A DNA stretch of 64,000 nt from a virus. Lineage: Duplodnaviria; Heunggongvirae; Uroviricota; Caudoviricetes. A program made the position numbers and the translations under genes. The stretch lies in the IMG/VR virus record IMGVR_UViG_3300031418_000001; one strand, given 5' to 3'. Each line of letters begins with the position of its first letter. The stretch's first letter is position 1. The notes under the pieces were generated by a model that worked only from the letters and a program-made list of their open reading frames with translations, was not told where the DNA came from and ran no database searches. Below, in pieces: positions 2,339-58,350 of the stretch.

Positions 2339-2578
2339 TTGACTGTACCAAATATATTTGCTTACCAAGGGCGGGTTCTGCTTAGCCGCTTATATTTGTG
2401 GGTTAAAGTACTTTATATTCTGGAAAATATTCTGTACTACATAATGTACTACATTCTGCGTACTATAGAGTATTCTATTCTGGTAAACATTCTGTACTTC
2501 ATTCTATATAACATTCTGGTAAACATTCTGTACTTTATTGTTCGGGGCATAAAACATGAAACATTTTGCAGCACATGA
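2339..2578 (+). CDS. Doubtful ORF spanning the 12-bp repeat (hydrophobic ILxx-repeat peptide)
   Basis: 79-aa ORF with TTG start and no clear SD. Confidence 0.2.
   Translation: MTVPNIFAYQGRVLLSRLYLWVKVLYILENILYYIMYYILRTIEYSILVNILYFILYNILVNILYFIVRGIKHETFCST
2417..2536. repeat. Degenerate tandem repeat, ten 12-bp units, consensus ATTCTG-TAC/GTA-xxx
   Basis: ATTCTGGAAAAT ATTCTGTACTAC ATAATGTACTAC ATTCTGCGTACT ATAGAGTATTCT ATTCTGGTAAAC ATTCTGTACTTC ATTCTATATAAC ATTCTGGTAAAC ATTCTGTACTTT; no indels. Confidence 0.9.
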
Positions 2579-3092
2579 TGGTATAAAAGAGTTCTTAAAA
2601 ATTTTTCGCTCCACAAAGTTTGAAAGAGCAGACTGTTGGTACAGAATACGTGGTACTAACGTAGCAATGTGTCATCAACGTATTGAGTACGGTTTTCGCA
2701 ACTTAGGTATGTACATTGTACAACCACAACACTTACATACTAACAGAGTACTTAATAATATTGTATATGTACAACCTATGGGTGAAGTACCTGTTACCGC
2801 CTTATACGACACTGAGTACTATATTGTAACTGAGAATAATAGAAAAATACATCACTTTAAAAGAAAAGATTATCCTACATTCAGTGCTGATGATGTTTTC
2901 AATCTTAGTACATTAGGAAAGTACAGTACAGATTCTTTAAATTCTTTATTACTTCTTTCTCACATTCTGGAAGAATATAATCTTGATTCTGTAGAATTAC
3001 GTCCTGAAACATTACTTTCTATAGTACAGGATCATCCTGAAGTACTGTGTTCGCCGTGGGAACTTGAAGAATATGAAGACTATGATAACTGA
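2556..3092 (+). CDS. Paralog family A protein (hypothetical)
   Basis: C-terminal motif SADDVFNLSTLGKY. Confidence 0.75.
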   Translation: MKHFAAHDGIKEFLKIFRSTKFERADCWYRIRGTNVAMCHQRIEYGFRNLGMYIVQPQHLHTNRVLNNIVYVQPMGEVPVTALYDTEYYIVTENNRKIHHFKRKDYPTFSADDVFNLSTLGKYSTDSLNSLLLLSHILEEYNLDSVELRPETLLSIVQDHPEVLCSPWELEEYEDYDN

Positions 3093-3546
3093 CAAATTGG
3101 GTACATTATTACCTGAAGATTATAAGAACAAGATAGATCTACTGTGTACGCGGATTATTGAGCACTACGAGGATGGAAAAAATTTTCGCTCTGGTATGAT
3201 GGAGGTAATGTTTAACGATGCAGGTAAATTCAGTGTATGGCGTCGAAGTAAGCCAATACTGTTCTACAAGAAGGACACTGATAAACCTGAACTGCTTACC
3301 GAATATTATTATAGCGTTACTGAACTACATAATGAAATATTTTACTTTTATATTGATTACAATATGGTAACAATGTGTACGCGGGATTTTGATGATAAAG
3401 ATTTTATATTCAATATATCTGTAACTTACAGTACTGACATTATATGTTCAATGTATATGATGATGATGCTCTTAAACATACACTACGGCAATATGCTACT
3501 GGACAGAGATTATATGTCAGCCTTTCTTCGGAGTGATAATGAATAA
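3082..3546 (+). CDS. Paralog family A protein (hypothetical)
   Basis: Motif DKDFIFNISVTYSTD; 11-nt overlap with the previous gene. Confidence 0.7.
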   Translation: MITDKLGTLLPEDYKNKIDLLCTRIIEHYEDGKNFRSGMMEVMFNDAGKFSVWRRSKPILFYKKDTDKPELLTEYYYSVTELHNEIFYFYIDYNMVTMCTRDFDDKDFIFNISVTYSTDIICSMYMMMMLLNIHYGNMLLDRDYMSAFLRSDNE

Positions 3547-4012
3547 TATAGAACTTACACGACTTCATAATAATGAACTGGCATTATTTGCTCATTCATT
3601 ATTTCATTCTTTGCATGATAGAAAAGAAATTGAGAAGTACGTTATTAAGAGGTGGGGAGGAACATTACGGTATGTTGCCCCGCCTGATGGCATGACATTA
3701 CTTGGAACAGTTGAGCAACATAATCCGTCCCTGGGATTGTATGCACTTTCTGGAAGACCGGAATACTGTTACATCACTTATGAAGAGTCTTTGTACTTAG
3801 ATAAAAACTATAAACATTCTGACTTTAATATAAGTGAAGATTTCTTTTCTATGAGTACTATGTATGATATGCAGGTACTCAAGGTACTCTATTTTTCTGA
3901 ATACATTAAGAAAGAATTAACCAAAGATAAAGAACAAATGGTACTGATTAATATTGTCATGATTGAAAATTATTATCAGTACTTAATGACGGAGTACGGG
4001 AATGCTTACTGA
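3539..4012 (+). CDS. Paralog family A protein (hypothetical)
   Basis: Motif ISEDFFSMSTMYDM. Confidence 0.7.
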   Translation: MNNIELTRLHNNELALFAHSLFHSLHDRKEIEKYVIKRWGGTLRYVAPPDGMTLLGTVEQHNPSLGLYALSGRPEYCYITYEESLYLDKNYKHSDFNISEDFFSMSTMYDMQVLKVLYFSEYIKKELTKDKEQMVLINIVMIENYYQYLMTEYGNAY

Positions 4013-4433
4013 AAAAAGAAAAGAAGGGCTAACTATCCTTGGAAATTACATGAGGTCTGTTACCATTGCTTTAATTAATAATGTACAAATTGACGGGCTT
4101 GAATTTGAACAAACTCGTGGTGCAGTATCATACAAACATAATTCAAACTACGTGATTACTATGACAACAAACATCACGGAAGAGTTTCAAAGTAATTTAA
4201 GCGTTGTGTATTGTTTCTTTAACAATAAGAATATAATTTTAAACAAGATAGAATACCCTCGTAGCCCCGATGAGGATTTTTTCGCTCTGAGTACTGTACT
4301 TGAGAAGTTATATTTTGAGCGTTTATTTGTCATGTCATTTCTTCACGACATTGTTTTGGAGAGTGATGAACATTGTGTACTTATAGATGATTTTTGGTTG
4401 AGTACTTTTCTTGCTGGAGAACTGACGAAATGA
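4002..4433 (+). CDS. Paralog family A protein (hypothetical)
   Basis: Motif PDEDFFALSTVLEK. Confidence 0.7.
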   Translation: MLTEKRKEGLTILGNYMRSVTIALINNVQIDGLEFEQTRGAVSYKHNSNYVITMTTNITEEFQSNLSVVYCFFNNKNIILNKIEYPRSPDEDFFALSTVLEKLYFERLFVMSFLHDIVLESDEHCVLIDDFWLSTFLAGELTK

Positions 4434-4951
4434 ATATAGAAGTTTTTAATGAACTACATAAGTACCTACTGAATGTAATTCCTGATTTCTATATTAAGCA
4501 CGGGGAATTAGGATGTTCAAAATTCGTAGATCATGAATTCACATTGATGGATATTAATTTTAAAGTTAGGTGTGATGTACTAAATGAAACACAGTTCTTT
4601 AGTGTTAATATGTTAAATGAGGGGAAAACAAAGTTTTGTAATTTAATTTCAATAGCTCATCATATAAAGATACAAAATAACTGTGGTCAGATAACGAGTA
4701 ATGAAAAAGAAGTACTACCTGAAGTAGTTACTTGTAGTAGTATGGCAAGATTATATCGGTACAACAATAAAATCATTTTTAATCGTGAAGTACAAGATGT
4801 TCCAGAAATTACAAAGGATGTTATCTTTAATTTGAGTACTTATCTGGATGATACAAAACTGGAGGCTTATAAGTTCATGACTTATATCAGTACTCCATTT
4901 AACTATATCTATATTAACTTAGAACACAATACTGAGTGGTACGCAACATGA
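4430..4951 (+). CDS. Paralog family A protein (hypothetical)
   Basis: Motif ITKDVIFNLSTYLDD; ATGA overlap. Confidence 0.75.
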   Translation: MNIEVFNELHKYLLNVIPDFYIKHGELGCSKFVDHEFTLMDINFKVRCDVLNETQFFSVNMLNEGKTKFCNLISIAHHIKIQNNCGQITSNEKEVLPEVVTCSSMARLYRYNNKIIFNREVQDVPEITKDVIFNLSTYLDDTKLEAYKFMTYISTPFNYIYINLEHNTEWYAT

Positions 4952-5409
4952 ATGAAGATATGGAACCTGTAATACAGTTATTACAAGAAATGATTGATGA
5001 AATCTATGTTTATGGGAAGATTGAAGATTTAGCGAACAAGTATAATTGCAGAATTGATCTTGATTCTTATCCTTCAACTGATACATACAGAGTTGTATCC
5101 ATATATGGCTCTGTTATTGGTATTCGTTTTGTGGATACTATAGATGATCCCAAATTCACAAGAGGGATGACGGTATCTCATGATTACACAGCAATGTTTT
5201 CAGGCCAGGATTACATACGTTATACGAGTGAACATGTATTTGAAAACATTGATATTCAGACTGATTTATTTGCACTGAGTACAGTACTTGATAATACTGC
5301 AATTCAAGAGTTGTATGTGCTAAGTAAATTAATTAACCATGAGAAGTATTATGCTATTAGCTTATACAAAAATACAATAAAAATGTGTAATAAGATTCTA
5401 AAAAGATGA
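4948..5409 (+). CDS. Paralog family A protein (hypothetical)
   Basis: Motif IQTDLFALSTVLDN; ATGA overlap. Confidence 0.7.
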   Translation: MNEDMEPVIQLLQEMIDEIYVYGKIEDLANKYNCRIDLDSYPSTDTYRVVSIYGSVIGIRFVDTIDDPKFTRGMTVSHDYTAMFSGQDYIRYTSEHVFENIDIQTDLFALSTVLDNTAIQELYVLSKLINHEKYYAISLYKNTIKMCNKILKR

Positions 5410-5912
5410 TAAATTTTGACAAGAAAGTACTTAAACTCTTTAATGCGTTTTGTGTCATTTACGATGCTGATATTTCTGGTTGTACTGAAGGTTACGGTAT
5501 GATGTTTATGAATGTTAATAACGTTCTTTACAAATGGGAAAACTTCTATACTGGAATTAATAATGATTTTAATCCATGTAGTTTCGTTCCTAATACAGTC
5601 AGCACTAATCATAGTACGTCACGTCTTTCGTGGCTTAACAATCATGCGAAGTTCATTAATGATAATATGAGAAACCGTGTGTACATAATCAATAATGTAA
5701 TGTACTATTATGATAATAATATTGTTTGTCACCAAATTGATATTAAAGAATTCAGTACTGATGATTATTTTAATTTACAGTTCATATTAAATGACAGACA
5801 ACTGATTTCTTTTCAGTTAGGGTATCTTATATATCAGAAGTTCAGTAGAAATTTCTTTCTATCATCAACTTCTGTAGAAAAATGTATTCAGGAAAATTTT
5901 AATGAATATTAA
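5406..5912 (+). CDS. Paralog family A protein (hypothetical)
   Basis: Motif FSTDDYFNLQFILND. Confidence 0.75.
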   Translation: MINFDKKVLKLFNAFCVIYDADISGCTEGYGMMFMNVNNVLYKWENFYTGINNDFNPCSFVPNTVSTNHSTSRLSWLNNHAKFINDNMRNRVYIINNVMYYYDNNIVCHQIDIKEFSTDDYFNLQFILNDRQLISFQLGYLIYQKFSRNFFLSSTSVEKCIQENFNEY

Positions 5913-6456
5913 AGAAGTATACGATGAAGTACAGATTATTGTTCCTGATATTGAAAAGATAATGAAATCATTAACACATTGCGTTAATCATGTTAAGCAT
6001 GAATTTTCATTTGGTAATGGTCGTGTCAATATTAGGGCAATCAATGAGATTGGATTAATTCACTACTACGATAATGAATCTGAACTTACTTATAGTATTG
6101 GTACTTATGGTGTAAACAGTACTCATATCGTTTTAGCTCAGTCTATTAGTGATAATTCTGAATGGTACGTTCAGTCCAAGAAGATCTTTGGCACTGACGA
6201 ATACATGCTAACTGAAAAATTTCTTCATTTAAAAAAGGATGAGTACTTTAATTACTTATTAGGTACTTCAGAAGTAAATCTGAAATACATCATAGGATGT
6301 GCTATAATACTAAAAAAATGGGATTACCCTGTTGATAATGTCATCACATTAGATGCTGAACGAATTGACTCGTTGGGCTTGCATTCACTCGCATGTGCAT
6401 TAGATAAACAAACAAAGAGAATTATAAATGAAAATATCTTCAGTGAAGACATTTAA
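5902..6456 (+). CDS. Paralog family A protein (hypothetical)
   Basis: Motif LKKDEYFNYLLG. Confidence 0.7.
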   Translation: MNIKEVYDEVQIIVPDIEKIMKSLTHCVNHVKHEFSFGNGRVNIRAINEIGLIHYYDNESELTYSIGTYGVNSTHIVLAQSISDNSEWYVQSKKIFGTDEYMLTEKFLHLKKDEYFNYLLGTSEVNLKYIIGCAIILKKWDYPVDNVITLDAERIDSLGLHSLACALDKQTKRIINENIFSEDI

Positions 6457-6841
6457 AAGTAAGGTTCTGGAAGCTGTTCAATTGATTTATGATGCATCAA
6501 TTAAACCAAAGGCACATGATAAGTACAAACAAATGGGAATTCAAGTACACCGCTATGATCGTTATAAACGTCATAGAGGAAATATAGAGACATGTAAAGT
6601 ATTGTTCTTTTATAACAATGGACAGTCATGTTTTTGCTGTAACGGTAATGATTTAAATTTATCAGAAATTGATAAAGGAACATTTTTCAATGCAAGAATA
6701 ATGGATCAAAGTTTTAGAAGAATGTACATGGAGTGTGTAGCAACTGAACTGAATAAAAGGTTCAATTATAAACAAAGATATGAACAGGAATATATGGTTT
6801 ATATTGATGAATTACTAAAGTACTTGAAGATTAGTTTATGA
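6428..6841 (+). CDS. Paralog family A protein (hypothetical)
   Basis: Motif IDKGTFFNARIMD. Confidence 0.65.
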   Translation: MKISSVKTFKSKVLEAVQLIYDASIKPKAHDKYKQMGIQVHRYDRYKRHRGNIETCKVLFFYNNGQSCFCCNGNDLNLSEIDKGTFFNARIMDQSFRRMYMECVATELNKRFNYKQRYEQEYMVYIDELLKYLKISL

Positions 6842-7335
6842 AGACAAAATTAACTGATGTTAAACATATCAATAAGATTTCTAAGAAAATGGATGATTTA
6901 ATAATGTACGCTGTTAAGTACATTCATCGTGAATCCATGCGTAGAATAAAACATAACAACACAAAAAAGTTGTACTTTTATAAGAATCATAAAGATCCTT
7001 CAATAATTATGGCTCAGTACGGTTGTAATACTCTGTTCAGCTTTAGCTATCTTAAAGTATATACTCCAGCTTATTCCACAAAAACAATAACCATAGGTGA
7101 TCATTGCATGGACTTAAAGGAATATGATAAGAGTGATATTTTTAGTTTAAGTACTTTATATGATATTGAACTTTTGAAATGGTTACAGGTTGGTTGTAAA
7201 ATGAAAGAATCTCATCTTAGAAATATATCTATTCTGAATTCAATATCAGAGCAATTAGTGAATGAAGCACATTCAGCTTATCAAACACAGTACCATGAAA
7301 TTGACAAAGAAAAGTTTCATATATATCAGGGATAA
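6838..7335 (+). CDS. Paralog family A protein (hypothetical)
   Basis: Motif YDKSDIFSLSTLYDI. Confidence 0.75.
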   Translation: MKTKLTDVKHINKISKKMDDLIMYAVKYIHRESMRRIKHNNTKKLYFYKNHKDPSIIMAQYGCNTLFSFSYLKVYTPAYSTKTITIGDHCMDLKEYDKSDIFSLSTLYDIELLKWLQVGCKMKESHLRNISILNSISEQLVNEAHSAYQTQYHEIDKEKFHIYQG

Positions 7336-7338
7336 CAA

Positions 7339-7791
7339 ATGATTTTAACAAGACAAGAATTTAAACTGATCAAGAAGATGCAGAAAATAATTGATTTTTC
7401 TATTGATTATATGAGAAGTGATTACGTAAGAGTAAGGAAACATAATCACAGAAGAAAAATTGCAGTGTATACCGGATACCGAGAAGAAATAAAACTCACA
7501 TTCGGTGAAAATAATATTGCACTAATTAAACCTGATAAACCAAAGGAACATGCAATCTGGCTGAAAGGTGAGAAATATGAACTTCGTGATTATGAAGAAG
7601 ATGAAATATTCAATATGAGAACGTTGTTAAGTAATAATGAAATTACCGCAATTAAGGTTTACAGTAGACTTAATTTTCATGGGAAAACAGCAGGATTCTA
7701 TACCACTGATTATGAACTAATTTGTGATGCCGCTGCTGCTATTGACCAACAGTTCAGAAAATACGACAGGAGTTCATTTGAGTACTCATAG
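7339..7791 (+). CDS. Paralog family A protein (hypothetical)
   Basis: Motif YEEDEIFNMRTLLS. Confidence 0.7.
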   Translation: MILTRQEFKLIKKMQKIIDFSIDYMRSDYVRVRKHNHRRKIAVYTGYREEIKLTFGENNIALIKPDKPKEHAIWLKGEKYELRDYEEDEIFNMRTLLSNNEITAIKVYSRLNFHGKTAGFYTTDYELICDAAAAIDQQFRKYDRSSFEYS

Positions 7792-7819
7792 AGTAAGAAG
7801 CCCACAATTATATACTGCG

Positions 7820-8224
7820 ATGTTGAAAGATTGTTATAGTATATTGCTTTCACTTAAAGAAGGTTATGAATTCAAACGTTCCATTAAAGGTCAGTGCTTT
7901 ATTTTTTACGGATACAAAGTACATATCAATCATGAGATCGTTGATTTCTATCGTTACGATGAAGTGTTTATGAGGTTACATTTTGGTAAGATGGATACCG
8001 AAATTCTGGTTAACACACGTACTTATCACTTTTCGGTGCAGTATGGTACTGCAATTGGTGAGTATAAAATGCCAATAAGTAAAGATGAACATTTTAATGT
8101 TATGTTGATGAAAGAAAGTTTTCCTGCATGGGAAGACATGGAGTACTTAAACAAGATATACCTCACCCTAAAGGATTTGGGCGTGGAGTACATGAATCTG
8201 AACAGTTCACGGTTCTACATTTAG
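7820..8224 (+). CDS. Paralog family A protein (hypothetical)
   Basis: Motif ISKDEHFNVMLM..WEDM; start uncertain. Confidence 0.7.
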   Translation: MLKDCYSILLSLKEGYEFKRSIKGQCFIFYGYKVHINHEIVDFYRYDEVFMRLHFGKMDTEILVNTRTYHFSVQYGTAIGEYKMPISKDEHFNVMLMKESFPAWEDMEYLNKIYLTLKDLGVEYMNLNSSRFYI

Positions 8225-8940: not shown

Positions 8941-9737
8941 ACCTCAAAGATTATAGTCTAAATGAGCATGTGAAATTTACAGAAGACCAGTTGTATAATA
9001 AAGATTGTACTCAATTGAGAATTGATGTTCATGATGGAGTAGTAACTTTACCATGCAACCGACATAATCAATATATGTCTCATACATTGAACGGTAAAAG
9101 CATATGTACGATGCGTCAAAGTGGAAGTACTCTAAGCATTTGTTATAATAATGATTTTTATTATACTAAAACATGGTGTACTGAATCTTTCACGGGTATT
9201 AATGTATATTATGAGTACGATACTTCCAAAAAGAAGATCATAAAGAAAGAATCAGATTTCTATACATTTACAAATATTAAAGATAATATTAATGCGTATA
9301 AGAAAAATGATAAAAATAATACCTCTGTAAAGGTAATGTATAGTGGCATTCATAAGTCATATGAACTTAAAAATAAATCAAGTACTTATACTGAAAAGTA
9401 CACTATAAGTTCGAAGAATCTCGTACATTCACAATTCAGCCATAATTATATTGGAATACGGATGAGTAAGAATGTAACTCATAATGAGGGAGAAATCTCA
9501 GTAAGTTCATTCATAAAGAATATAAATGTGAAATTCAAGTTCGAAGGTGAACCATGTTTGCTTCGGTTGTTAAACAAAACATTTATATTTGATGCATTAA
9601 TCAGTACTGACCTGGCTTTAATTATTGAAGATGTTCAGGCTGCTATTATTGATGGAATGAAATTTATGCAGGAAACTCCAACTCACATTAAAAATATTGA
9701 TGAAATTGTGGAGTACTATAAAAATAATGCAACATAA
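8937..9737 (+). CDS. Hypothetical protein
   Basis: 266-aa ORF, ATGA overlap. Confidence 0.7.
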   Translation: MNLKDYSLNEHVKFTEDQLYNKDCTQLRIDVHDGVVTLPCNRHNQYMSHTLNGKSICTMRQSGSTLSICYNNDFYYTKTWCTESFTGINVYYEYDTSKKKIIKKESDFYTFTNIKDNINAYKKNDKNNTSVKVMYSGIHKSYELKNKSSTYTEKYTISSKNLVHSQFSHNYIGIRMSKNVTHNEGEISVSSFIKNINVKFKFEGEPCLLRLLNKTFIFDALISTDLALIIEDVQAAIIDGMKFMQETPTHIKNIDEIVEYYKNNAT

Positions 9738-10173
9738 TGAAATTATTGAAAAGTATTTTAAAAAGATAGTAAACCAGGATTTCGAACAAAAAAATAATTA
9801 CTATCCTAATGAATACAATGGTTCGGTTCGTATATATCTTGACCCTGATTCATCCAAGAAAAGGAATATGAATTTTGGAGTTCATATATATGAGCATAAT
9901 TATAGTATAGTTAAGTTACTTTACCAAAGTAGATTAAGTATATATGTTAGTAACATTAGCATTCTGATTGCTGATGAAAATCAGAAATACGAAGTAAGAA
10001 CATCAGATGAGTACTTTAATATATCTCTATCTCTGGATTTAAACATACCCTTTAGTACCTTAAAGAATATTCAGAATGATATGCTATATATTAACCGTAA
10101 ATCTATAACATTTTTTATGGATGAACTAATTGAGCACTTTAATAAAGTTACAGAAGGTGATTCCGGTAGTTAA
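9727..10173 (+). CDS. Paralog family A protein (hypothetical)
   Basis: Motif TSDEYFNISLSLDLNIPFSTL. Confidence 0.75.
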   Translation: MQHNEIIEKYFKKIVNQDFEQKNNYYPNEYNGSVRIYLDPDSSKKRNMNFGVHIYEHNYSIVKLLYQSRLSIYVSNISILIADENQKYEVRTSDEYFNISLSLDLNIPFSTLKNIQNDMLYINRKSITFFMDELIEHFNKVTEGDSGS

Positions 10174-10573
10174 TCATTTTATTGATGCAGTACCGGATGT
10201 TCCACACAACACCGTACAGCAGTTCGGTGACTATTTTTATGTACGCAAGCCTTACTCAGTACTGATATTTTCCAAGTACCAAGATGCGTTTGAATCTAAC
10301 CAGATCAAGTATTCATGTGCAATGGTTAACTACGGAAAAACAGCTATGCGTATAAGTTGTATCAACGATTATTTTGATAGTAAAACAGCATCATCTTTCT
10401 CTATTACTGAGACAAATGTATATTTTCATGATTTAGTAATGGATATCAACGTATCTAAAGATGAGTACTTTTCTAACAGCTTAGGTAATGATATATTTTT
10501 AACCTATGAAGAATTCAAAGTACTTTTTACTATTAAATCGCCTGGTGCTACTATTAATATTAAAAACCTATAA
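10130..10573 (+). CDS. Paralog family A protein (hypothetical)
   Basis: Motif VSKDEYFSNSLGNDIFLTYEEF; start uncertain. Confidence 0.7.
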   Translation: MSTLIKLQKVIPVVNHFIDAVPDVPHNTVQQFGDYFYVRKPYSVLIFSKYQDAFESNQIKYSCAMVNYGKTAMRISCINDYFDSKTASSFSITETNVYFHDLVMDINVSKDEYFSNSLGNDIFLTYEEFKVLFTIKSPGATINIKNL

Positions 10574-14353: not shown

Positions 14354-14356
14354 TCC

Positions 14357-14385
14357 TGAAACATATTTCATTTATGTGCTATACT
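14357..14385 (+). promoter_or_regulatory. TGAAAC-N17-TATACT promoter (copy 3), driving the candidate ncRNA
   Basis: TGAAAC 14357-14362, ATGTGC-TATACT 14380-14385. Confidence 0.8.
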
Positions 14386-14389
14386 AATA

Positions 14390-15146
14390 GTGAGGACATA
14401 TAACTGTTCTCACTTTCAAAACCCTGACTGGCAGTTTAAACACTGATAATAAAAACCTGATCCTATCGAAAAGTAGATGGCAGATGAGTTGTCCAGACAG
14501 AACGCAGTGCAAAAGAAACCCGTGTAAATTACTCCATGCGACTATACAAAACAGCAGAGGACACGGCAATGCGGCACTATAAAGGCGAAAGATAATACAA
14601 GTACTCGCCCATGATAGACATATAAGGATCGCACCTTACGAACATGTATAAGGGATTCTATTACTTATAATAGATTTAGCGACGGAAATTGTACAATATA
14701 AATCCGTCTTTAATTCATAAGTACTTAGAAGTGTATCTGGAGAATTCGTGTACTTCAGGTATATAGAGTAGTGATGAACTACGACCGTTGCATAAGGATT
14801 ACGATAGGAAGAAACAGGGCAACCCGCTTCCGCTTAGATACAGAAGTACAATGAAGTTGTATCTAAAATTCGGTACATGAAATGTCGATGCTACCAGCGT
14901 CAAAATTAAACCTTTAGAGTACTTAAACTCTGAATCCTTTCCCCCTTGCGGGGGATGGAAATGTCTCTACAAACCCCGTCAATGAGTACTGTAAAAGTTT
15001 AATTACTAATTAAATGAAGTTCATCAAGAAATGAACGTAGTGAATTTCGTATGAACGAATTTAGGATTAGCTGAACGTCAGTTCAGATGAGCCTTGTATT
15101 AAGAACACCAAGAGAGAAGCAAGTTTTTGTTTCTCTCTTTTATTTT
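14390..15146 (+). ncRNA. Candidate large (~750 nt) structured non-coding RNA, class unassigned
   Basis: No + strand ORF of 60 aa or more; bounded by a promoter and a terminator; more than 12 hairpins, several with G-U pairs; long-range helix TCCTATCG(14461-68)/CGATAGGA(14802-09). Confidence 0.7.
15110..15146 (+). terminator. Intrinsic terminator closing the candidate ncRNA
   Basis: AAGAGAGAAGCAA-GTTT-TTGTTTCTCTCTT-TTATTTT (13 bp, one G-U). Confidence 0.8.
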
Positions 15147-15157
15147 GTGGATTATAA

Positions 15158-19223: not shown

Positions 19224-19494
19224 AGTTAATACTTATTTTTGGGAAGACAATGAGAAGGTAGGATTACGCCAGATCAAAGTACGTAATACTGATCGAATCC
19301 TTGCGGTAATCAATGCTAACTGTGTTGATGGGGTGTGGCTTTGCTCATTTGTTCCTATGGGTTTCAGGTTTGAAATTACTGAAATGGATGACCTTAAAAC
19401 ATGTATAGAAAGGTCTGAAATTATCATGAAATTACTTACTAAAGTACAACTTACCTTATCAGAAGTAGAGGAAATTATTAATGGATTTCTATGA
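19213..19494 (+). CDS. Hypothetical protein
   Basis: ORF 19171..19494; ATG 19213 gives an 11-nt overlap. Confidence 0.7.
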   Translation: MRFEVNTYFWEDNEKVGLRQIKVRNTDRILAVINANCVDGVWLCSFVPMGFRFEITEMDDLKTCIERSEIIMKLLTKVQLTLSEVEEIINGFL

Positions 19495-21470: not shown

Positions 21471-21473
21471 GAG

Positions 21474-21496
21474 AAGGGAGCTTATGCTCCCTTTTT
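21474..21496 (+). terminator. Intrinsic terminator
   Basis: AAGGGAGC-TTAT-GCTCCCTT-TTT. Confidence 0.85.
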
Positions 21497-44227: not shown

Positions 44228-44272
44228 TTTTATCTCCTTAAAGAGTATATTACTCAAATATATTTGTTATAG

Positions 44273-45547: not shown

Positions 45548-45582
45548 GGAAATATTGGGTACGTTAAGTACCCAATTAAGAT

Positions 45583-46074
45583 ATGAATATACTCTGTCCA
45601 GATTTAGAACTTATTAAAATCCTTACTGAAGCAAATAAAGATAATAAAGAAGTAAGCGTAAATTATATACATGCACCAGATTATAAAAACTACAATCATG
45701 TAGATTATATTATGGAATGTGCATCAGTAATGCAAAAGTACGATTATGGAAAATTTGTTTTTTGCTTCAGATTTTATGCAGTAGCTTCATCTGAATGGAA
45801 GTACCAAGATGTATTAGCCAGTAACTATACTGACTTCGATGAAGTACTTCTATATGTAATGTACAGTGATGAAGATATAGTTGTTGGTAAAAACGCATTG
45901 CCATGTCAAGTAATTGACAACAAAAAACAATATGAGGTTTGGGATTTTGATTTGATGTGTCATGTATCTGACCCATTAGACTCAGAGATTATTGGTTCAT
46001 ATGCGTATAACAAGTTTGTATTCCATGAACCTCTTTATATTATCCCAATTCAACTTGTACCTAATATGGCATAA
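45583..46074 (+). CDS. Hypothetical protein between the two NAD salvage genes
   Basis: 163-aa ORF preceded by hairpin ATTGGGTAC-GTTAA-GTACCCAAT. Confidence 0.7.
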   Translation: MNILCPDLELIKILTEANKDNKEVSVNYIHAPDYKNYNHVDYIMECASVMQKYDYGKFVFCFRFYAVASSEWKYQDVLASNYTDFDEVLLYVMYSDEDIVVGKNALPCQVIDNKKQYEVWDFDLMCHVSDPLDSEIIGSYAYNKFVFHEPLYIIPIQLVPNMA

Positions 46075-46084
46075 GCCAGAAACT

Positions 46085-46125
46085 GTAGCGTTGTAGCTAC
46101 TTTATAATTACTAAGGGAGTCTTAG
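46085..46125 (+). promoter_or_regulatory. Shared NAD-gene leader, copy 2
   Basis: GTAGCGTTGTAGCTA-N11-CTAAGGGAGTCTTAG, ATG at 46128. Confidence 0.8.
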
Positions 46126-46127
46126 AT

Positions 46128-47606
46128 ATGAAAAATTTAAAAGTAAACTTTATTCTTAATGTTGATTCGTACAAAACTGGTCATGGTTCAATGATGAAAG
46201 ATGGTGTTGTTGGTCTTGAATCAAATATCATTGCACGTAAACCATCAAAATATACTACTCACGTAGTTATGATGGGATTACAGTACTATCTTCAAGAGTA
46301 CCTTGATATTAACATTACCAAAGAAGATATTGACGAAGCTGAATTTGAAACCGAACAACGTGGTGATGATTTCGACCGTGAATTTTGGGAATACATTCTT
46401 GAAACTTACAAAGGTAAAATCCCACTACATATTCGTGCAATTCCTGAAGGTACTTTAGTACCAGTTGGTTGTCCTCTGGTTCGTTCTATTGGTGATGATG
46501 AACATGTTGCAGTAATTGCAAGCTATGTTGAAACACAAATTCAACGTGCAGTATGGTTTCCCACTACAATTGCAAGTAATCTTCGCAGCATTAAAGAATT
46601 TTTAGCAGACACAATGGAACGTCATGCAGGCCATCGTTTTGTTGATTACCACTTACATAACTTTGGTGATCGCGGTGCTTCATGTTATGAAGCTGCAATG
46701 ATTGCTGGTATGACCCATGCTGCATTGTTCAGTGGTTCTGATTGTCTTTCTGCTAACCGTGTGATTAAACATTACTACCATACTGATAAAGCATATCTTA
46801 GTTCTGTAACAGCAAGTGAGCACAGTGCTACTTGTTCCAACAGTGACGCAAATAAACGCGATGATTTCAATATGGCAGTTAAAATGGTACGTCTGTGGGA
46901 AAAGAAAGTACAAAAGTACATTGCTAAAGGTAAAAAAGGTGTTCCACCTATTGTATCTATTGTAATTGATACCTATGATGCTTATCGTTTTGCTCGTGAC
47001 TATATTGGTACTCGCCTTAAAGCAAGTATTGAAGAAATCGCACATACCTGCCCAGGTGCTAAAGTAGTTCTCCGTCCTGACAGTGGTGATCCGACCACAA
47101 TGCCAATCGAAATTATTGAAATTTTGATGGAAAAGTTTGGTCATACTGTTAATGCTCAGGGATATAAAGTACTTCCATCCTTCATCGGTGTAATTCAAGG
47201 TGATGGTATTAATGAAGACAGTATCCGTGATATTGTAGGTAATCTTGAAAAGAAACATCTTTCTCTTGAGAACTTAGTATTCGGCATGGGCGGTAAATTG
47301 GTACATCCAGAAAAAGGCCGTGATCATTTTAGCTTCGCAATGAAAGGTTCTTCACAGACACTTGCAGATGGTACACAAGAAGATCTGTTCAAAGATCCAA
47401 TTACCGATGTAGGTAAACGTTCCCTCCGTGGTCGAGTAACTACTTACAAATGTAAAGTCAGTGGTAAAATCATTGCTGAACGTATTGAACTTCAGGAAGT
47501 TAATAAACAACTGGAAGACATGATGGTTGACGTATACGTTAACGGTGAAATCATGAATCTCAGTACTTTCGATGAAGTACGTGATCGTGCCAATATAGGT
47601 TTGTAA
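46128..47606 (+). CDS. nadV: Nicotinamide phosphoribosyltransferase (NAMPT)
   Basis: DSYKTGH, LHNFGDRG, ASEHS, SIVIDTYD, LRPDSGDP, IQGDG, FGMGG, FKDPITD.GK.S..G. Confidence 0.95.
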   Translation: MKNLKVNFILNVDSYKTGHGSMMKDGVVGLESNIIARKPSKYTTHVVMMGLQYYLQEYLDINITKEDIDEAEFETEQRGDDFDREFWEYILETYKGKIPLHIRAIPEGTLVPVGCPLVRSIGDDEHVAVIASYVETQIQRAVWFPTTIASNLRSIKEFLADTMERHAGHRFVDYHLHNFGDRGASCYEAAMIAGMTHAALFSGSDCLSANRVIKHYYHTDKAYLSSVTASEHSATCSNSDANKRDDFNMAVKMVRLWEKKVQKYIAKGKKGVPPIVSIVIDTYDAYRFARDYIGTRLKASIEEIAHTCPGAKVVLRPDSGDPTTMPIEIIEILMEKFGHTVNAQGYKVLPSFIGVIQGDGINEDSIRDIVGNLEKKHLSLENLVFGMGGKLVHPEKGRDHFSFAMKGSSQTLADGTQEDLFKDPITDVGKRSLRGRVTTYKCKVSGKIIAERIELQEVNKQLEDMMVDVYVNGEIMNLSTFDEVRDRANIGL

Positions 47607-48251: not shown

Positions 48252-49496
48252 ATGACATTTAAAGTAGCAGACTTAACTAAAAATTCAAAGTGGAAACTTA
48301 CTGCTGAAGTACCATTCTACCCATATACCCGTAATCAATGGGGTTGGGTTGATATTAATAAAAGTGTAAGTAATGCACCAGTAGGTACTGAATTTACCGT
48401 TCCGGTTAAACGACAGTCGGGTACTTTCAATGATGCTGGATATGATCGAGTAAATCGTGTGGATATTCCTGCCACGTGGGAAGTAACAGGTGTGTATTTT
48501 GACGTTCAGGTTAATGGTAACGCTGGTGCTGTATTCTTTAATGATATTAAAAACTGCATTGAACTATTAGAACAACCAAAAGATGCAGTCGTTCTTATTA
48601 AGGATACTGCTACTGGTAAGTACTTTAACAATGACTATGTATGTTACGTTGACCAATATGATAAAGATAAGTTAAAGGATGCTGAAGAAAAGTATCATGC
48701 AAGTGCAAAAAGTACACCTTTCTTTTGTTCACAATATAGCCAAGTTCGTCATACGTATGATACAGAAGTTGAAGCAGCAAAACTTGGATTCACTGCACCC
48801 GATATTAAAAAGTCAGAAGTAGTACTGACCTTTGCTGGTCGTGAATTTAGATTTGCAAGTACTCCATTATCAGGTAAAGTATTCAAGAATATTGGTTTTG
48901 CAAAACAACGTCTTCTTGCATGTGTCGGTTATTATAATGATACAAGTAATGACATGATGTATTGTCGTGATCCTCTTACTGCTATTCCTGATACATGGAA
49001 GTTGGTAGAATATGATAAAACTACCAAACAGGAAACAGTACTTGACTTTGATTGTGTTGAATATGCTCGTCATGCACTGGAACTGAAAATCCTTACTACC
49101 AAATACGGCTCAAGTACTCGCAGTATGTATTCTAAACTTGAGAAGAAAGGTGAGTTGGATAAATTCAAGTACTTCCTTATTTTCACACCAGGTGATGTAG
49201 ATCAGAAGCCTCTTTCTGAATATATGTATTATGACAATAAATTACTTGAAGAAATTGATCGTTACACTGTACGTGAAGTTTTCAACGGCGGTTCATATAC
49301 TATCAAGAAAGAAGAAGTGAAATTAGTAAAAGATATTGTTGACAAGAAAATGAAAAAAGATTTCGGGGATGATAGTATTTGTCTCGCAATCGAAGAACGT
49401 CGTGATGCATTGGAAATTACATTCACTTATCTTGGTAATTTGAACTTTAAACTTATTGATATGAGTACCCTTAAAGAAATAGTAAATGAAGATTGA
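48252..49496 (+). CDS. Hypothetical protein
   Basis: 414-aa ORF. Confidence 0.8.
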   Translation: MTFKVADLTKNSKWKLTAEVPFYPYTRNQWGWVDINKSVSNAPVGTEFTVPVKRQSGTFNDAGYDRVNRVDIPATWEVTGVYFDVQVNGNAGAVFFNDIKNCIELLEQPKDAVVLIKDTATGKYFNNDYVCYVDQYDKDKLKDAEEKYHASAKSTPFFCSQYSQVRHTYDTEVEAAKLGFTAPDIKKSEVVLTFAGREFRFASTPLSGKVFKNIGFAKQRLLACVGYYNDTSNDMMYCRDPLTAIPDTWKLVEYDKTTKQETVLDFDCVEYARHALELKILTTKYGSSTRSMYSKLEKKGELDKFKYFLIFTPGDVDQKPLSEYMYYDNKLLEEIDRYTVREVFNGGSYTIKKEEVKLVKDIVDKKMKKDFGDDSICLAIEERRDALEITFTYLGNLNFKLIDMSTLKEIVNED

Positions 49497-49986
49497 TTTC
49501 AAAAAGATTTGTAATAAAGTACAGAATTTTTCTAAGCCTAAATTATGTACTAAAAAGAAGTTTGAATTAAGAAACATTGATAGTAAGGTTTTCCCTTATG
49601 AACTGTATTTTACTAATCGTCATCATTATACCGATGAAAATGTTCTGAGAAAATTTTATAATCATTTAAAAGTTCAGGGGTTAACCGGAACAATTAAATC
49701 ATTTGTGCACCGAAAGTATAATCATAATAAATTTTATACGGTACAAGGTAAAGGTTTATTTGTACTTTCCATTAGAAATTATAGAATGGAACAACCAGAT
49801 TTTGCATTCGAAATAACAAGAAATACAATTGTATTAGGTACAGATAAACAAATTTTTGACTTACACGATAAGAGTGAAAGATTTGCGGCTTCAATGTACT
49901 TCACATTTGATTATGATGAGCTTGTTAATATGCAAATAGCTTTAAAACATAAACCGTCAGGTTTTTATCATTTATATGTAGAATAA
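49486..49986 (+). CDS. Probable paralog family A protein
   Basis: Motif HDKSERFAASMYFTFDYDEL. Confidence 0.65.
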   Translation: MKIDFKKICNKVQNFSKPKLCTKKKFELRNIDSKVFPYELYFTNRHHYTDENVLRKFYNHLKVQGLTGTIKSFVHRKYNHNKFYTVQGKGLFVLSIRNYRMEQPDFAFEITRNTIVLGTDKQIFDLHDKSERFAASMYFTFDYDELVNMQIALKHKPSGFYHLYVE

Positions 49987-50356: not shown

Positions 50357-50785
50357 ATGGCAGGAGGCTATATATCTGTAAAGTTGGATAAAGACCAACA
50401 AAAAGAAATACAAGAAATACTTAAAAAAGCTGAACTTAAACCCGTAGATGATATGCATTGTACGTTAATGTATGATGAAAATGATCCTGATATTGATTAT
50501 GATACCGAATCATCAAAAGTTTATGAAGCCAGTGTAACTGGCGTGGAACAATTAGGTTCAGCTTTAGTGCTTTTACTGAAATGTCCAGAACTTGAAACAC
50601 GGCATAAAGTACTTAAAGAATTAGGATTCGAACATTCTTATGATGACTTACTTTGTCACATGTCTTTAGTTTATGAACCAGAAGATGAAGATGACATTGA
50701 AATAATTGAACTTCTATATAATGTCGGTTTATTCCCTAAAGTACTTAAATTCAGTTCCGAATATAACGAGAAACTACAGGATTAA
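50357..50785 (+). CDS. acb1: 2H phosphoesterase, T4 gp57B/Acb1 anti-CBASS nuclease homolog
   Basis: HCTLMY and HMSLVY (two HxT/S motifs); GSALVLLL..L..RH...LG..H.YDD..H.SL.Y and EY.EKL parallel T4 57B. Confidence 0.85.
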   Translation: MAGGYISVKLDKDQQKEIQEILKKAELKPVDDMHCTLMYDENDPDIDYDTESSKVYEASVTGVEQLGSALVLLLKCPELETRHKVLKELGFEHSYDDLLCHMSLVYEPEDEDDIEIIELLYNVGLFPKVLKFSSEYNEKLQD

Positions 50786-50786
50786 T

Positions 50787-51161
50787 ATGAAAGATTATTA
50801 CTCTTTTCTGATGAATGTTGCCGAGCTTCTTAAAACACAAGATAAAGTTGACTTTATTGTTAATGGTATTACGGTATCTGTTGCTTGGCAAGTACCTAAT
50901 GCTCAATTTACTGAAATTCATATTGAGCAAGACTGTGATGAAAGTTCTGGTGTTATTTTCAAATTAAGTAATACTGAAGAAGCAAAGCGAAAGTTACTGG
51001 AGTTTGATAAATCTGATTACTTTAATCAAAACCTAATCACTCCATTAATACTTGACTATGACGAAATGATGGAAGTACTATTTTCATTCGTTGAGTTAGA
51101 AAAGATGTATACAATAATTATCTCTAAATCACTTTATCCTATTATTGAAGACAAAAAATGA
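50787..51161 (+). CDS. Paralog family A protein (hypothetical)
   Basis: Motif FDKSDYFNQNLITPLILDYDEM. Confidence 0.75.
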   Translation: MKDYYSFLMNVAELLKTQDKVDFIVNGITVSVAWQVPNAQFTEIHIEQDCDESSGVIFKLSNTEEAKRKLLEFDKSDYFNQNLITPLILDYDEMMEVLFSFVELEKMYTIIISKSLYPIIEDKK

Positions 51162-51577
51162 CTGAAGAAGAATCAAGTAGGTTAAGAAATTATATATTAT
51201 CTGTTATTGATATTCTAAGTACTGATAATATCGTAGAACAAGTTATAGATAATAATATTATTACTGTAGGTTATATTGATTCTGATGATGATGAAAGTAC
51301 TTCAAGTCTTGAAATCTTTAACTCATTGAATGATGGATTGCATCTCTCATTTGACCATGCTTTAAAAGTTCAGTTAACTAATGATGGGCTTGACAAGGAT
51401 GACTATTTCAATTTATCATTGGAATATGATTTAATCTTGTCTTTCGAAGATTTAAAGATGGTACTTAATGGATTCTGTAATAATGAAAAGTTTTTTAATA
51501 TTCGAATCCCTTACAGTGTTTTTTGTTATATTAAACAAGGAAAGATTGATGAACCTACAAACGTTTTTACAATCTGA
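51158..51577 (+). CDS. Paralog family A protein (hypothetical)
   Basis: Motif LDKDDYFNLSLEYDLILSFEDL. Confidence 0.8.
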   Translation: MTEEESSRLRNYILSVIDILSTDNIVEQVIDNNIITVGYIDSDDDESTSSLEIFNSLNDGLHLSFDHALKVQLTNDGLDKDDYFNLSLEYDLILSFEDLKMVLNGFCNNEKFFNIRIPYSVFCYIKQGKIDEPTNVFTI

Positions 51578-52298
51578 AGAACCTCGTTTGGTCTTTTTCA
51601 GTGGTGCTGGATTAAGCAAAGAATCTGGAATTAATACATTCCGTGATGCTGATGGTACATGGGAAAAGTTTGACGTGAACAAAGTATGTAATATTGATAC
51701 GTTTATGTCTAACTACAAAACAGTACATGATTTTTATAACGCTCGTCGTGTACAATTAAGTACGGTTGAACCAAACGCTGCTCATTTCTTTATTGCAGAA
51801 ATGCAAAAGAAGTACGGCGACCGTGTACTTCATTTTACTGCGAACGTAGATGATCTATGTGAACGGGCCTGTGGTACTGCATGTCATGTTCATGGTTCTT
51901 TACTTGAAGTGATTGATAACTACACTCGTTGTGGTGAATTTGCTGAAATTAAGAAATTGGGTTATGAAGAATGGATTCCTGATCCTGAAGTTAATTCTAA
52001 ACCCAACATTGTTTTCTTTGGTGAAAGTACTCGATTCGAGGATGGTAAAAAAGTTTATATCTATGATGATATGAACAATGTTTTATTCTTCCTACGACCA
52101 CAGGATACTGCCATTATCATTGGTAGTGGTGATCAGGTACTGGAATGGTCTTATATGTGTGGTAAACGTTCTCAAGCGTTCGCTATTAACGTAAACCCCG
52201 TAGAGCAACAGTTCGATAATCTATTCCAAGAAAACATCTATAAACCAGCAACAGAAGCAATACCAGACATTCTGGATTTTATTGAAAAACGAATGTAA
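51549..52298 (+). CDS. sir2: Sir2/CobB-family NAD-dependent deacylase-like protein
   Basis: SGAGLSKESGINTFRD, PNAAH, NVDDL, HVHGSL, KPNIVFFGE, IIGSG, VNP. Confidence 0.88.
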   Translation: MNLQTFLQSEEPRLVFFSGAGLSKESGINTFRDADGTWEKFDVNKVCNIDTFMSNYKTVHDFYNARRVQLSTVEPNAAHFFIAEMQKKYGDRVLHFTANVDDLCERACGTACHVHGSLLEVIDNYTRCGEFAEIKKLGYEEWIPDPEVNSKPNIVFFGESTRFEDGKKVYIYDDMNNVLFFLRPQDTAIIIGSGDQVLEWSYMCGKRSQAFAINVNPVEQQFDNLFQENIYKPATEAIPDILDFIEKRM

Positions 52299-52339: not shown

Positions 52340-52870
52340 ATGCGATTAGTAGACAGAATCAAAAAAGAAATATATAAAGTTTCCAAGAAAAGAAATTATC
52401 GTCATTTTAAAGATAACGACATTGATGATTTTATTATTTCAATGGATGAAATGGATAAAGGTAATTATATTAGTTCTTATGCTATAAAAGGAAGAACTAT
52501 TGGTTATGTTGATATTAAAAATTCAATTGCATGTCAGCGTATTGTAAAACCTTTCAGATTCGGGCCATCAAAATATAAACTTGAATTGATATTAAAATCA
52601 GATTTTGCAATCTGTATTGATGATAAGAAAGTAAAGGTATTTAAAGCCAATCATGGCTCAAGCATTATGGATAAAAATGATCCATTTTACGAAGGCTATA
52701 CTATTGATAAAGAAACATTCTTTAACCTTAGTTTGGAATATGATTATATTTTAACTGAAAATGAAATTGAAGAACTTAGAGTACTTATGCGTAAGTACTG
52801 TAAAAATATTGCTGTTAATATCTACACAACAAATATTATTTCAGCTTGTTTAGTACCCTGGAAATGGTGA
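52340..52870 (+). CDS. Paralog family A protein (hypothetical)
   Basis: Motif IDKETFFNLSLEYDYILTENEIEEL. Confidence 0.8.
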   Translation: MRLVDRIKKEIYKVSKKRNYRHFKDNDIDDFIISMDEMDKGNYISSYAIKGRTIGYVDIKNSIACQRIVKPFRFGPSKYKLELILKSDFAICIDDKKVKVFKANHGSSIMDKNDPFYEGYTIDKETFFNLSLEYDYILTENEIEELRVLMRKYCKNIAVNIYTTNIISACLVPWKW

Positions 52871-56588: not shown

Positions 56589-57263
56589 ATGCCTTTTTCT
56601 TTATCTGGAATAATGCAAATGAATAGCACAGATGCAAAAAGTATCATTGATAAAACTATAACATTGATACTAAATTCATATATGGAAACTCATACGGTTG
56701 TGTATGGTTCTATTGTGGAAAGAAGTATTGGTTTGAATGTCATTCCTTCTGATATTGATGTTATTCTGGTTAATACAAAAGAAGTTATGGCTGGTCAGAT
56801 TGATGGTTTATTGATGGAAATTGATTACCTGAATCTTGAAGACCTAATTCATGAAATTTACAATGAACCTAAAATGCTTTTGTGTGAATCTTCTATCGAC
56901 CTTGAACCTTATTTCGACGTAACTAAAGTACGATCATCTGTGAGTAATGTATGTTCTAAAGCATACAACAAAGGTAAGAAGAAGTTAATTGTAAGTACTG
57001 ATTATGATGAGTACTTAGGATTAAAAAATTTATATCACGCAATGAAGTTTCCATATTTTGCAAAATGGAAATTTATCAATAAAGGATACCCACCTGAAGA
57101 TATTGAATATCTAAACAATATTCGTTCTAAAATATTCAGAACTTACGAACAAAGTACTGGAACTTTAGAAGAACGCTTTGAGTCGGTTAATGAATGGCTT
57201 AAGCCTGAATTCAACAAAGTAATGACTGAATTCAGAAAGTACTTTCCAAAGGTGAAAGAATGA
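56589..57263 (+). CDS. Putative Pol-beta-superfamily nucleotidyltransferase
   Basis: VVYGS....SDIDVILV motif; start uncertain. Confidence 0.55.
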   Translation: MPFSLSGIMQMNSTDAKSIIDKTITLILNSYMETHTVVYGSIVERSIGLNVIPSDIDVILVNTKEVMAGQIDGLLMEIDYLNLEDLIHEIYNEPKMLLCESSIDLEPYFDVTKVRSSVSNVCSKAYNKGKKKLIVSTDYDEYLGLKNLYHAMKFPYFAKWKFINKGYPPEDIEYLNNIRSKIFRTYEQSTGTLEERFESVNEWLKPEFNKVMTEFRKYFPKVKE

Positions 57264-57679
57264 GTTATTTCGATGAAATTAATGAAGAAGTTAAAAGAAA
57301 CAAAGTAGTTGAACGTTTTAAGTACTTTGATCTTTTCTATTATAATATCAAGAATATGATTACATCTGACATTTTCAAAAAGAATGGTCAAATTGGTGTA
57401 GTACATAGTGGTTGTGAATTTAACTTTAAACGTAAAATCAAAAAAGGTAATATGACTATCTATATCAATAGTGGTTATATTTGCACAACTATTTCAATGC
57501 AAAATGAAATGTATTATCAATCAGTTCAGTGCAGTCATATTGTTGAATCTGACCGGAAAAGAATGAAGAAAAGTTCTTCATCTGATAGCAGTACAAGACG
57601 TTCAGAAAGAAAATCATCAAGCAGAAATGATGATAGTTCTTTTAATAATCCTTCTAATCCAAGTAATCCTTTAATGTGA
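57260..57679 (+). CDS. Hypothetical protein with a Ser-rich tail and NPSNPSNPL end
   Basis: 139-aa ORF. Confidence 0.65.
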   Translation: MSYFDEINEEVKRNKVVERFKYFDLFYYNIKNMITSDIFKKNGQIGVVHSGCEFNFKRKIKKGNMTIYINSGYICTTISMQNEMYYQSVQCSHIVESDRKRMKKSSSSDSSTRRSERKSSSRNDDSSFNNPSNPSNPLM

Positions 57680-57686
57680 GATAACA

Positions 57687-57938
57687 ATGTTTGAATTTAT
57701 CGGTTTTGTAATTTCAGTACTTTTTTGTGCTGCGTTTTTCATATCAGGTTTGATGTTTTTATATATTGCATCAATTTTCAGTGACAGAGCCTCTGCTGTT
57801 GGTGGATTGATTTTAATCTGTATTGCGTCATTAGGTTCTTATAAGTTATATCATAATTCACCATATGAAGTTTCAGTAAAATCACACCAGGTAAATGATG
57901 CTAAAACAAATATTGAAATTAATCAGAAAGACAAATAA
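57687..57938 (+). CDS. Hypothetical membrane protein
   Basis: Two hydrophobic segments. Confidence 0.65.
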   Translation: MFEFIGFVISVLFCAAFFISGLMFLYIASIFSDRASAVGGLILICIASLGSYKLYHNSPYEVSVKSHQVNDAKTNIEINQKDK

Positions 57939-58350
57939 GAAAACATTCAGAAGAAACTCTGACCATCGTAACTATCCTTATGTATGTGCATACAATATGA
58001 TAAGTGATGGATATGTATACAAGAATGGAAAACGTCATCCTAAATTCAAGCGTTGGGATATCGGGCCTGAAAAATATGGTATTCATATATATGACAAAGG
58101 TTTACAAATAGATATTACACATTTGTCAATTAAAATATATAAAACTATATCTACCCCACATAATCTATTCCCTGATGAACATCTGATGTTTGAAGGTGAA
58201 AATTTGGACAATGATGATCATTTTAATTTATCAATGTCAATTCCTAACATTCCGACCGCCAGTGAAATTAATGTAATTCGTAGTATTATGAATAAGAAAG
58301 AAAGAAGATACACAAAAATATACATCTATTTGAGTAAAGACTGGATGTAA
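57895..58350 (+). CDS. Paralog family A protein (hypothetical)
   Basis: Motif LDNDDHFNLSMSIPNIPTASEI. Confidence 0.75.
   Translation: MMLKQILKLIRKTNKKTFRRNSDHRNYPYVCAYNMISDGYVYKNGKRHPKFKRWDIGPEKYGIHIYDKGLQIDITHLSIKIYKTISTPHNLFPDEHLMFEGENLDNDDHFNLSMSIPNIPTASEINVIRSIMNKKERRYTKIYIYLSKDWM

Follow-up and report, generated by a model that had tools for sequence, protein, structure and literature searches.

We analysed a window of 64,000 nucleotides, the whole stretch of DNA taken from the tailed-phage record IMGVR_UViG_3300031418_000001 of IMG/VR, and focused on a family of small paralogous genes (family A) that recurs between positions 2556 and 58350. The family consists of 33 open reading frames (ORFs) of 128-185 amino acids (aa), all on the plus strand, which carry the signature D-x-[FY]-F-N-x-S with its invariant F placed 28-69 residues from the C-terminus. 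It accounts for 33 of the approximately 123 plus-strand genes (27%) and for 15.9 kb, or 25%, of the window. Every large gene of the window is on the plus strand, and the GC content is about 33%. Other genes have Pfam matches to RNA ligase 1, polynucleotide kinase-phosphatase, DNA ligase, a NadR-like protein, NMNAT-Nudix, NAMPT, PhoH/PIN, a ClpP-like protease, a PnuC-type transporter and a Sir2-family protein. Judging from sequence, the window is part of a jumbo myophage of roughly 349 kb, of the Rak2/GAP32 type, known only from metagenomes. This assignment is based on the identities of the RNA ligase and on collinearity with Xanthomonas phage XaC1 (348,967 bp), the nearest named relative. The ligase is 66% identical to that of XaC1 and approximately 52% identical to those of Serratia phage BF, the Erwinia pEa_SNUABM phages, Yersinia phage fHe-Yen9 and Cronobacter phage GAP32, and reciprocal best hits align the window with positions 26.9-97.6 kb of XaC1. 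Searches for the locus in IMG/VR found nothing when one family member was used as query; with the RNA ligase, the only matches were distant phages with genomes of some 220-233 kb.

An all-against-all BLAST search grouped nine of the ORFs in one cluster. A hidden Markov model (HMM) iterated from this cluster converged on 15 core members with E values between 1e-22 and 1e-37, and the best of 4460 shuffled sequences reached 13 bits. One core member closes an unbroken tandem run of 12 genes at 2556-8224; the other 11 ORFs of the run stayed outside the first core iteration. Leave-one-out HMMs built on full-length automatic alignments were too noisy for the members of the run, and we used instead a position-specific scoring matrix (PSSM) derived from the core alone and an iteration bridged by XaC1. 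The core-only PSSM selected 5 of the 11 ORFs (p<0.001 against shuffles), and an alignment of the core with the tandem run by hhalign gave a local match only, of 35 columns over the motif helix (E 1.3e-4). For the bridge, we searched the ORFs of the complete XaC1 genome together with those of the window, adding three shuffled decoys per ORF. The 89 sequences on which this iteration settled comprise 20 ORFs of the window and 69 of XaC1; neither decoys nor minus-strand ORFs passed E 1e-3. Searches seeded with single candidates added the ORFs at 3533, 4394, 38988 and 15158.

In total, 24 ORFs of the window pass at E<1e-3, as against none of the 2106 decoys, and we class them as solid. Three more are probable (26969, 4002 and 5406; E 1.6e-4 to 1.5e-3, with no decoy scoring as high), and six are weak (4936, 3064, 20043, 49486, 18732 and 6428). 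The 33 best ORFs of the window in the final superfamily HMM are exactly the motif-bearing set, and the next ORF scores 5.0 bits. A first-pass annotation, made by a model from the sequence and its ORFs, had proposed a large and highly diverged paralog family with 27 clear and 4 weak members. The iterated HMM bears this out with counts close to these, and the four motif strings that the annotation quoted are all found by regular expression in the ORFs to which it attributed them. The comparison with shuffled ORFs that it had suggested thus leaves the family significant. It was also right that these genes are AT-rich (29.4-31.3% GC, compared with 34.3% in other genes; Mann-Whitney p 9e-7) and tightly packed: 31 of the 48 junctions adjoining a family gene overlap, 13 of them by 4-11 nt, including seven overlaps of 4 nt. 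Starts were taken at the first start codon, and the longer overlaps are hence probably overestimated.

The HMM alignments cover nearly the whole proteins (e.g., profile positions 10-127 of 148), and conserved hydrophobic residues follow the entire chain, spaced i, i+3, i+7 in the N-terminal helix and alternating in the strands. We modelled the core member at 10130-10573 with AlphaFold2, using an alignment of 50 sequences that gathers the paralogs and their orthologues. The model has a predicted local distance difference test score (pLDDT) of 89.5 and a predicted template modelling score (pTM) of 0.83. It contains a helix at residues 3-19, eight short strands, helices at 110-119 and 126-134, and a last strand. 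The model of a member of the tandem run (7339-7791; pLDDT 73.5, pTM 0.69), made from an alignment without core members, recovers the same order of elements. Neighbours of both models in BFVD are of the same kind, with several targets shared, and are uncharacterised proteins of Rak2-like phages (GAP32, RaK2, BF, fHe-Yen9, SP27, CBB and pEa_SNUABM_47). As to the common fold that the first-pass annotation had proposed to look for, the two modelled members, the second at the lower pLDDT, agree in element order and have structural neighbours in common. The alignments and these predictions give good support to every copy being one compact alpha/beta domain (about 130-185 aa) that leads from an amphipathic N-terminal helix through a beta meander of five to eight strands to a pair of C-terminal helices and a short final strand.

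No other element of the domain is nearly as conserved as the motif: the F is invariant, and the K, D, N and S are conserved at 66-78%. In the form K-D-x-Y-F-N-x-S-L it occupies residues 110-118 of the 10130-10573 model, where the first of the two C-terminal helices begins, and the S-x-E-E extension opens the second. The models lend good support to the view that the signature, written more generally as D-x-[FY]-F-[NQ]-x-S, supplies this first helix with its acidic start and with an aromatic pair that is presumably buried. Helices are classically capped by an acidic or hydroxyl residue with acidic residues following it, and on this general knowledge both helix starts would be capped in this way. 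We read the motif and its S-x-E-E extension as keystones of the predicted fold rather than as a separate docking peptide.

This domain resembles no characterised family in the resources that we searched. Among the 10 members scanned there was no Pfam match above cut-off and no PHROG match at E 0.01 or better, and no clear PDB counterpart of the family emerged. Weak Pfam matches (DUF3219, AceK and others) were rejected, as all were below the cut-offs and mutually inconsistent. Weak Foldseek matches to p32-like proteins share a similar order of elements, but have E values above 0.1 and template modelling scores below 0.2. Clusters of the ESM Atlas, unnamed or tagged DUF4270, were discarded because shuffled proteins reached their scores as well. 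We found among the family members no invariant set of residues of catalytic type and, one borderline case aside, no transmembrane segments. The isoelectric point varies between paralogs from 4.1 to 9.6. A search for longer fused forms of the family also found none, which is weak evidence.

A profile search of 1.8 billion representative sequences returned 28 matches. Two of these (P0014 and P0027), long repeat proteins, are low-complexity or repeat artefacts, and the rest are orthologues of single paralogs of the window. P0027, a surface-anchored metagenomic protein of 670 aa (E 7e-4), carries D-K-D-A-T-Y-F-N-[TA]-S about eight times, and its match probably reflects chance or the convergent evolution of a short motif, not homology. 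Full-length orthologues, at 31-99% identity, exist in other metagenomic phages for all 15 core paralogs, and each paralog line is therefore maintained in related phages. Orthologues are most alike in the motif (64% identity), followed by the C-terminal tail (52%) and the N-terminal part (43%). The N-terminal part thus varies among paralogs and yet is conserved within each paralog line. Family members also diverge much faster than the neighbouring enzymes: 10 of 29 have a reciprocal best hit in XaC1 (25-36% identity), as compared with 45 of the 64 other genes (median 53%). For about 12 members the best match in XaC1 occupies the syntenic position, and the collinear region of XaC1 holds about 32-38 copies, compared with 33 in the window.

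The search of relatives that had been suggested for the family found, by iterated HMM and with no decoy, at least 69 members in XaC1, 42 in Klebsiella phage RaK2 and 15 in GAP32. In RaK2, the motif takes the form T-E-E-x-[FY]-F-Q-x-S-T, the counterpart of K-D-x-Y-F-N-x-S in the window. The RaK2 genes ORF412-439 (262000-276100) form an unbroken run of 28 small adjacent genes annotated as hypothetical, with many family matches inside. This is a larger counterpart of the 12-gene run of the window, and many of its genes carry T-E-E-x-[FY]-F-Q-x-S. Published genome descriptions had noted paralogues in general terms only: unspecified ones make up nearly 10% of the RaK2 gene products (PMC3622015), and 22 ORFs of CBB were described as unspecified paralogues (PMC5259590). 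The comparison of these sequences gives good support to family A belonging, as one of its branches, to the largest multigene family found in jumbo phages of the Rak2/GAP32/XaC1 type.

The position of the family in these genomes bears on its possible role. XaC1 has T5-type ends, with a terminal repeat of 32,031 bp (PMC11273794); none of its family members lies inside the repeat, and they crowd the stretches directly inward of the two ends of the genome. In the window (1-2556), the first 2.3 kb resembles the interior of this repeat: the ORF at 447-890 is 40% identical to XaC1 26902-27402, and the family array starts directly after, at 2556. On these grounds, the boundary near 2231-2556 may be the inner edge of the terminal repeat of this phage. 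The virion proteins of RaK2 map to two clusters, around ORF038-139 and ORF526-533 (PMC3622015), and the dense family run at ORF412-439 is outside both. None of the 15 GAP32 members is labelled as a virion structural protein in the record annotation.

The tandem run that the first-pass annotation had outlined at 2556-8224 is real and unbroken, with seven solid, two probable and three weak members. It opens with 2556-3092 (178 aa, DDVFNLST), a solid member recovered by the iterated HMM with the XaC1 bridge (32.0 bits, E 7e-9). This is followed by the weak member 3064-3546 (160 aa, KDFIFNIS; 12.0 bits, E 0.008, no decoy as high, and 9.4 bits, E 0.063, in the final HMM) and by 3533-4012 (159 aa, EDFFSMST), whose seeded search recruits six known members and no decoys. 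Next are the probable member 4002-4433 (143 aa, EDFFALST; 15.3 bits, E 0.001, no decoy as high) and 4394-4951 (185 aa, KDVIFNLST), which recruits five known members and scores 32.4 bits, with p<0.001 in the core-only PSSM. The middle of the run holds 4936-5409 (157 aa, TDLFALST; weak at 11.4 bits, E 0.015, with 1 of 2106 decoys as high), 5406-5912 (168 aa, DDYFNLQ; probable at 14.7 bits, E 0.0015, no decoy as high, core-only PSSM p 0.0006) and 5902-6456 (184 aa, KDEYFNY; iterated HMM, 24.2 bits). The weak ORF 6428-6841 (137 aa, KGTFFNA; 7.6 bits, E 0.24) is included only for its motif, size and position in the run. The ORFs at 6838-7335 (165 aa, SDIFSLSTLYD) and 7339-7791 (150 aa) are a BLAST pair, both recovered by the iterated HMM, and the run closes with the core member 7724-8224 (166 aa, E 1.2e-26 in the core HMM).

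The other core members are spread over the rest of the window, some of them adjacent. They are found at 9697-10173 (158 aa, core HMM E 1e-27), 10130-10573 (147 aa, E 5.5e-37; syntenic XaC1 counterpart at 43825-44253), 16246-16752 (168 aa, E 1e-27; XaC1 50543-51037), 18176-18730 (184 aa, E 2.4e-33) and 19481-20029 (182 aa, E 6.9e-30). Three consecutive ones occupy 21511-21978 (155 aa, E 5.8e-32), 21960-22418 (152 aa, E 5.7e-34) and 22415-22903 (162 aa, E 5e-32). That at 27433-27981 (182 aa, E 3.8e-30) overlaps the start of the RNA ligase 1 gene by 8 nt, and that at 42049-42552 (167 aa, E 7.4e-23) has a degenerate motif and an XaC1 orthologue at 75704-76219 with 36% identity. The last ones are at 50706-51161 (151 aa, E 1.1e-22), 51158-51577 (139 aa, E 1.9e-23), 52340-52870 (176 aa, E 8.1e-31) and 57895-58350 (151 aa, E 6e-28; syntenic XaC1 counterpart at 90664-91134).

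Three solid members outside the run were recovered by the extended searches. The ORF at 15158-15661 (167 aa; 19.7 bits, E 4e-5), upstream of a DNA methyltransferase gene, recruits its XaC1 orthologue and one member, and GAP32_067, at the same position in GAP32, is also a member of the family. The only long gene-free gap of the window, 804 nt at 14354-15157, separates it from a DUF6267 gene. After the polynucleotide kinase gene, 30853-31293 (146 aa) was found by the iterated HMM (22.2 bits) and has a syntenic XaC1 counterpart at 64806-65243. The shortest member, 38988-39374 (128 aa, LEDFLNMNS), recruits eight known members and no decoys. To these add the probable member 26969-27439 (156 aa, KGEFFNMN; 17.9 bits, E 1.6e-4, no decoy as high) and the weak ones at 18732-19223 (163 aa, EDIFHLN; 8.4 bits, E 0.13), 20043-20513 (156 aa; 10.3 bits, E 0.035, with 3 of 2106 decoys as high) and 49486-49986 (166 aa; 8.8 bits, E 0.096).

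Two other groups of genes in the window deserve mention. An unusually full set of genes of nicotinamide adenine dinucleotide (NAD) metabolism, interleaved with family members, is spread over 20536-23922, 44417-47606 and 51468-52298. It includes a PnuC-type transporter of nicotinamide mononucleotide, a NadR-like cytidylyltransferase with an AAA domain, NMNAT-Nudix, NAMPT and the Sir2-family protein, and it could replenish NAD against NAD-depleting defences. At 32920-37215, four tandem paralogs of 328-378 aa form a BLAST cluster of their own and keep their order in XaC1 (XaC1_143 to 146); the one that was scanned, 32920-34056, has no Pfam match.

We favour the explanation that family A is a one-domain family of non-virion, probably early and diversified binding proteins, and we give this explanation as a whole a probability of about 0.5. 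Its structural and evolutionary part is very probable. The role, that of non-virion and probably early binders used in host takeover or counter-defence, is more tentative, and we hold it at somewhat less than even odds. It is proposed because the family lacks catalytic invariants, has essentially no membrane segments, varies in charge, carries no virion label in GAP32, has its RaK2 run outside the virion clusters and is positioned just inside the ends of XaC1. It is well supported that duplication and fast divergence have altered nearly everything except the keystones of the fold, and that each paralog line has a surface of its own, conserved by the orthologues of related phages. In the proposed role, the proteins would be absent from the virion and expressed from early genome arms beside the terminal repeat, and together they would make up a repertoire of small binding proteins, each neutralising or redirecting a different host or rival macromolecule. 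A host-interaction role, as already suggested in the first-pass annotation, is plausible.

Several alternatives deserve to be weighed against these diversified binders. The first-pass annotation took the proteins for modular adaptors, with a constant C-terminal helix that binds a partner common to all of them (the ClpP-like protease, a virion-loading factor or a host hub) and a variable remainder that picks the targets. The motif is indeed the most conserved element, as expected of a conserved contact surface, and in all the genera compared it has an amide residue, N or Q. But in both models the motif helix is inside one compact domain, confidently predicted for the core member, so that it is hardly an independent module mounted on unrelated N-terminal domains. 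The near full-length alignments, the conserved hydrophobic residues of the N-terminal helix and strands, and an N-terminal part nearly as conserved as the C-terminal tail within orthologue lines all speak against a variable N-terminus with a constant tail. The annotation had itself named, as evidence against the idea, conservation of the whole domain together with a match to a characterised family: the former is what we observe, the latter was not found. The proposed partners fare no better. The ClpP-like gene at 40624-41268 (Pfam CLP_protease, E 3e-52) is 81% identical to its XaC1 counterpart, and it probably encodes a morphogenetic protease, not a free degradation machine, because the GAP32 counterpart is annotated as a head maturation protease. 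This leaves ClpP as a shared partner without support, and virion loading is disfavoured by the lack of virion annotation among the GAP32 members. We thus regard adaptors of this type as unlikely; they are conceivable only in a weak form, as a conserved patch on a folded domain.

Slightly less probable still is that the paralogs serve the flanking enzymes as partner or regulatory subunits, or that they assemble with one another into an intracellular complex outside the virion. Members do overlap the starts or ends of the genes for RNA ligase 1, the NadR-like protein, a cytidylyltransferase and a metallophosphoesterase. XaC1 retains some of these pairs, and GAP32, too, has a member paired with the DNA methyltransferase. 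Yet a family that makes up 27% of the genes is expected to adjoin enzymes by chance, and no enzymes are found within the 12-gene run or among the 28 small adjacent ORFs of RaK2. We find it improbable, and the least likely of these alternatives, that the copies are largely dispensable, near-neutral duplicates without specific function that drift under AT-biased mutation. Such drift would fit their GC content below that of their neighbours, their fast divergence and the many members without detectable XaC1 orthologue. It does not fit with every frame being intact, with full-length orthologues of each core paralog elsewhere, with the similar copy number in the collinear region of XaC1, with positions that are syntenic across genera, or with a fold signal sufficient for a model of pLDDT 89.5.

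The diversified-binder explanation has its own weak points. The function of the family is entirely inferred, and the early timing derives from gene position and from analogy with phages T5 and SPO1; a scan for sigma-70 promoters was uninformative, with fewer sites than in shuffled sequence. Absence from the virion proteome is weak evidence for small, low-copy proteins, and here comes from the annotation of relatives only. The model of the tandem-run member is of moderate confidence. Finally, the motif keeps its polar N/Q and S/T across genera, and these residues could form a site for a shared ligand or partner instead of having a purely structural role.

In Rak2-like jumbo phages, this one family takes up about a tenth of the genes or more (in XaC1, at least 69 of 550 ORFs). 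Every copy has been deposited as a hypothetical protein, with no match in Pfam or PHROG and no clear counterpart in the PDB, and recognition of a single domain clears dozens of orphan genes per genome. The confident fold model is now a target for experimental structure determination. The members are also a concrete set of candidates for screens of host takeover and counter-defence in phages considered for biocontrol and therapy. Should the copies prove to be specific inhibitors, they could also serve, one by one, as probes for their host targets. We consider as speculative, and as a good deal less probable than the general binding role, the further idea that these phages use an unrecognised fold as a diversifiable binding scaffold. 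The arrays beside the terminal repeats would then equip every genome with a hard-wired set of small inhibitors, dozens in number, of which no two would have the same target among the defence and housekeeping functions of the host.

The nearest known proteins are the small ones of RaK2, GAP32 and XaC1, which belong to the same superfamily and size range and have the motif 25-70 aa from the C-terminus. Those of RaK2 share with the family of the window the long tandem runs and the structural neighbours in BFVD, and differ in having Q where the window has N and T-E-E where it has K/S-D. The family sequences are too distant from one another for BLAST, and the core profile alone gives only marginal matches in RaK2, GAP32 and BF. 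Minor pseudopilins GspI/EpsI of type II secretion (PDB 3ci0_I, 2ret_A) are also counted among the nearest known systems. Bacillus phage G has a comparable expansion, with roughly 35 copies of a zinc ribbon (Iyer et al. 2021, PMC7824862). Both cases involve dozens of copies of one small domain in a giant phage and a presumed role in regulation or conflict, but the family described here is alpha/beta without metal ligands, reaches higher copy numbers and is found in several genera instead of one phage. The inhibitor repertoire could be likened to the multigene families at the ends of the genomes of large eukaryotic DNA viruses. Among phages, the pre-early genes of T5 and the host-takeover module of SPO1 are early sets beside long terminal repeats. 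Like the arrays of family A, they consist of numerous small co-directional genes that are tightly packed, have products of unknown fold and adjoin a long direct terminal repeat. They differ in that their genes are mostly unrelated, whereas those of this family are paralogous and, as seen in XaC1, placed just inside the repeat and not within it.

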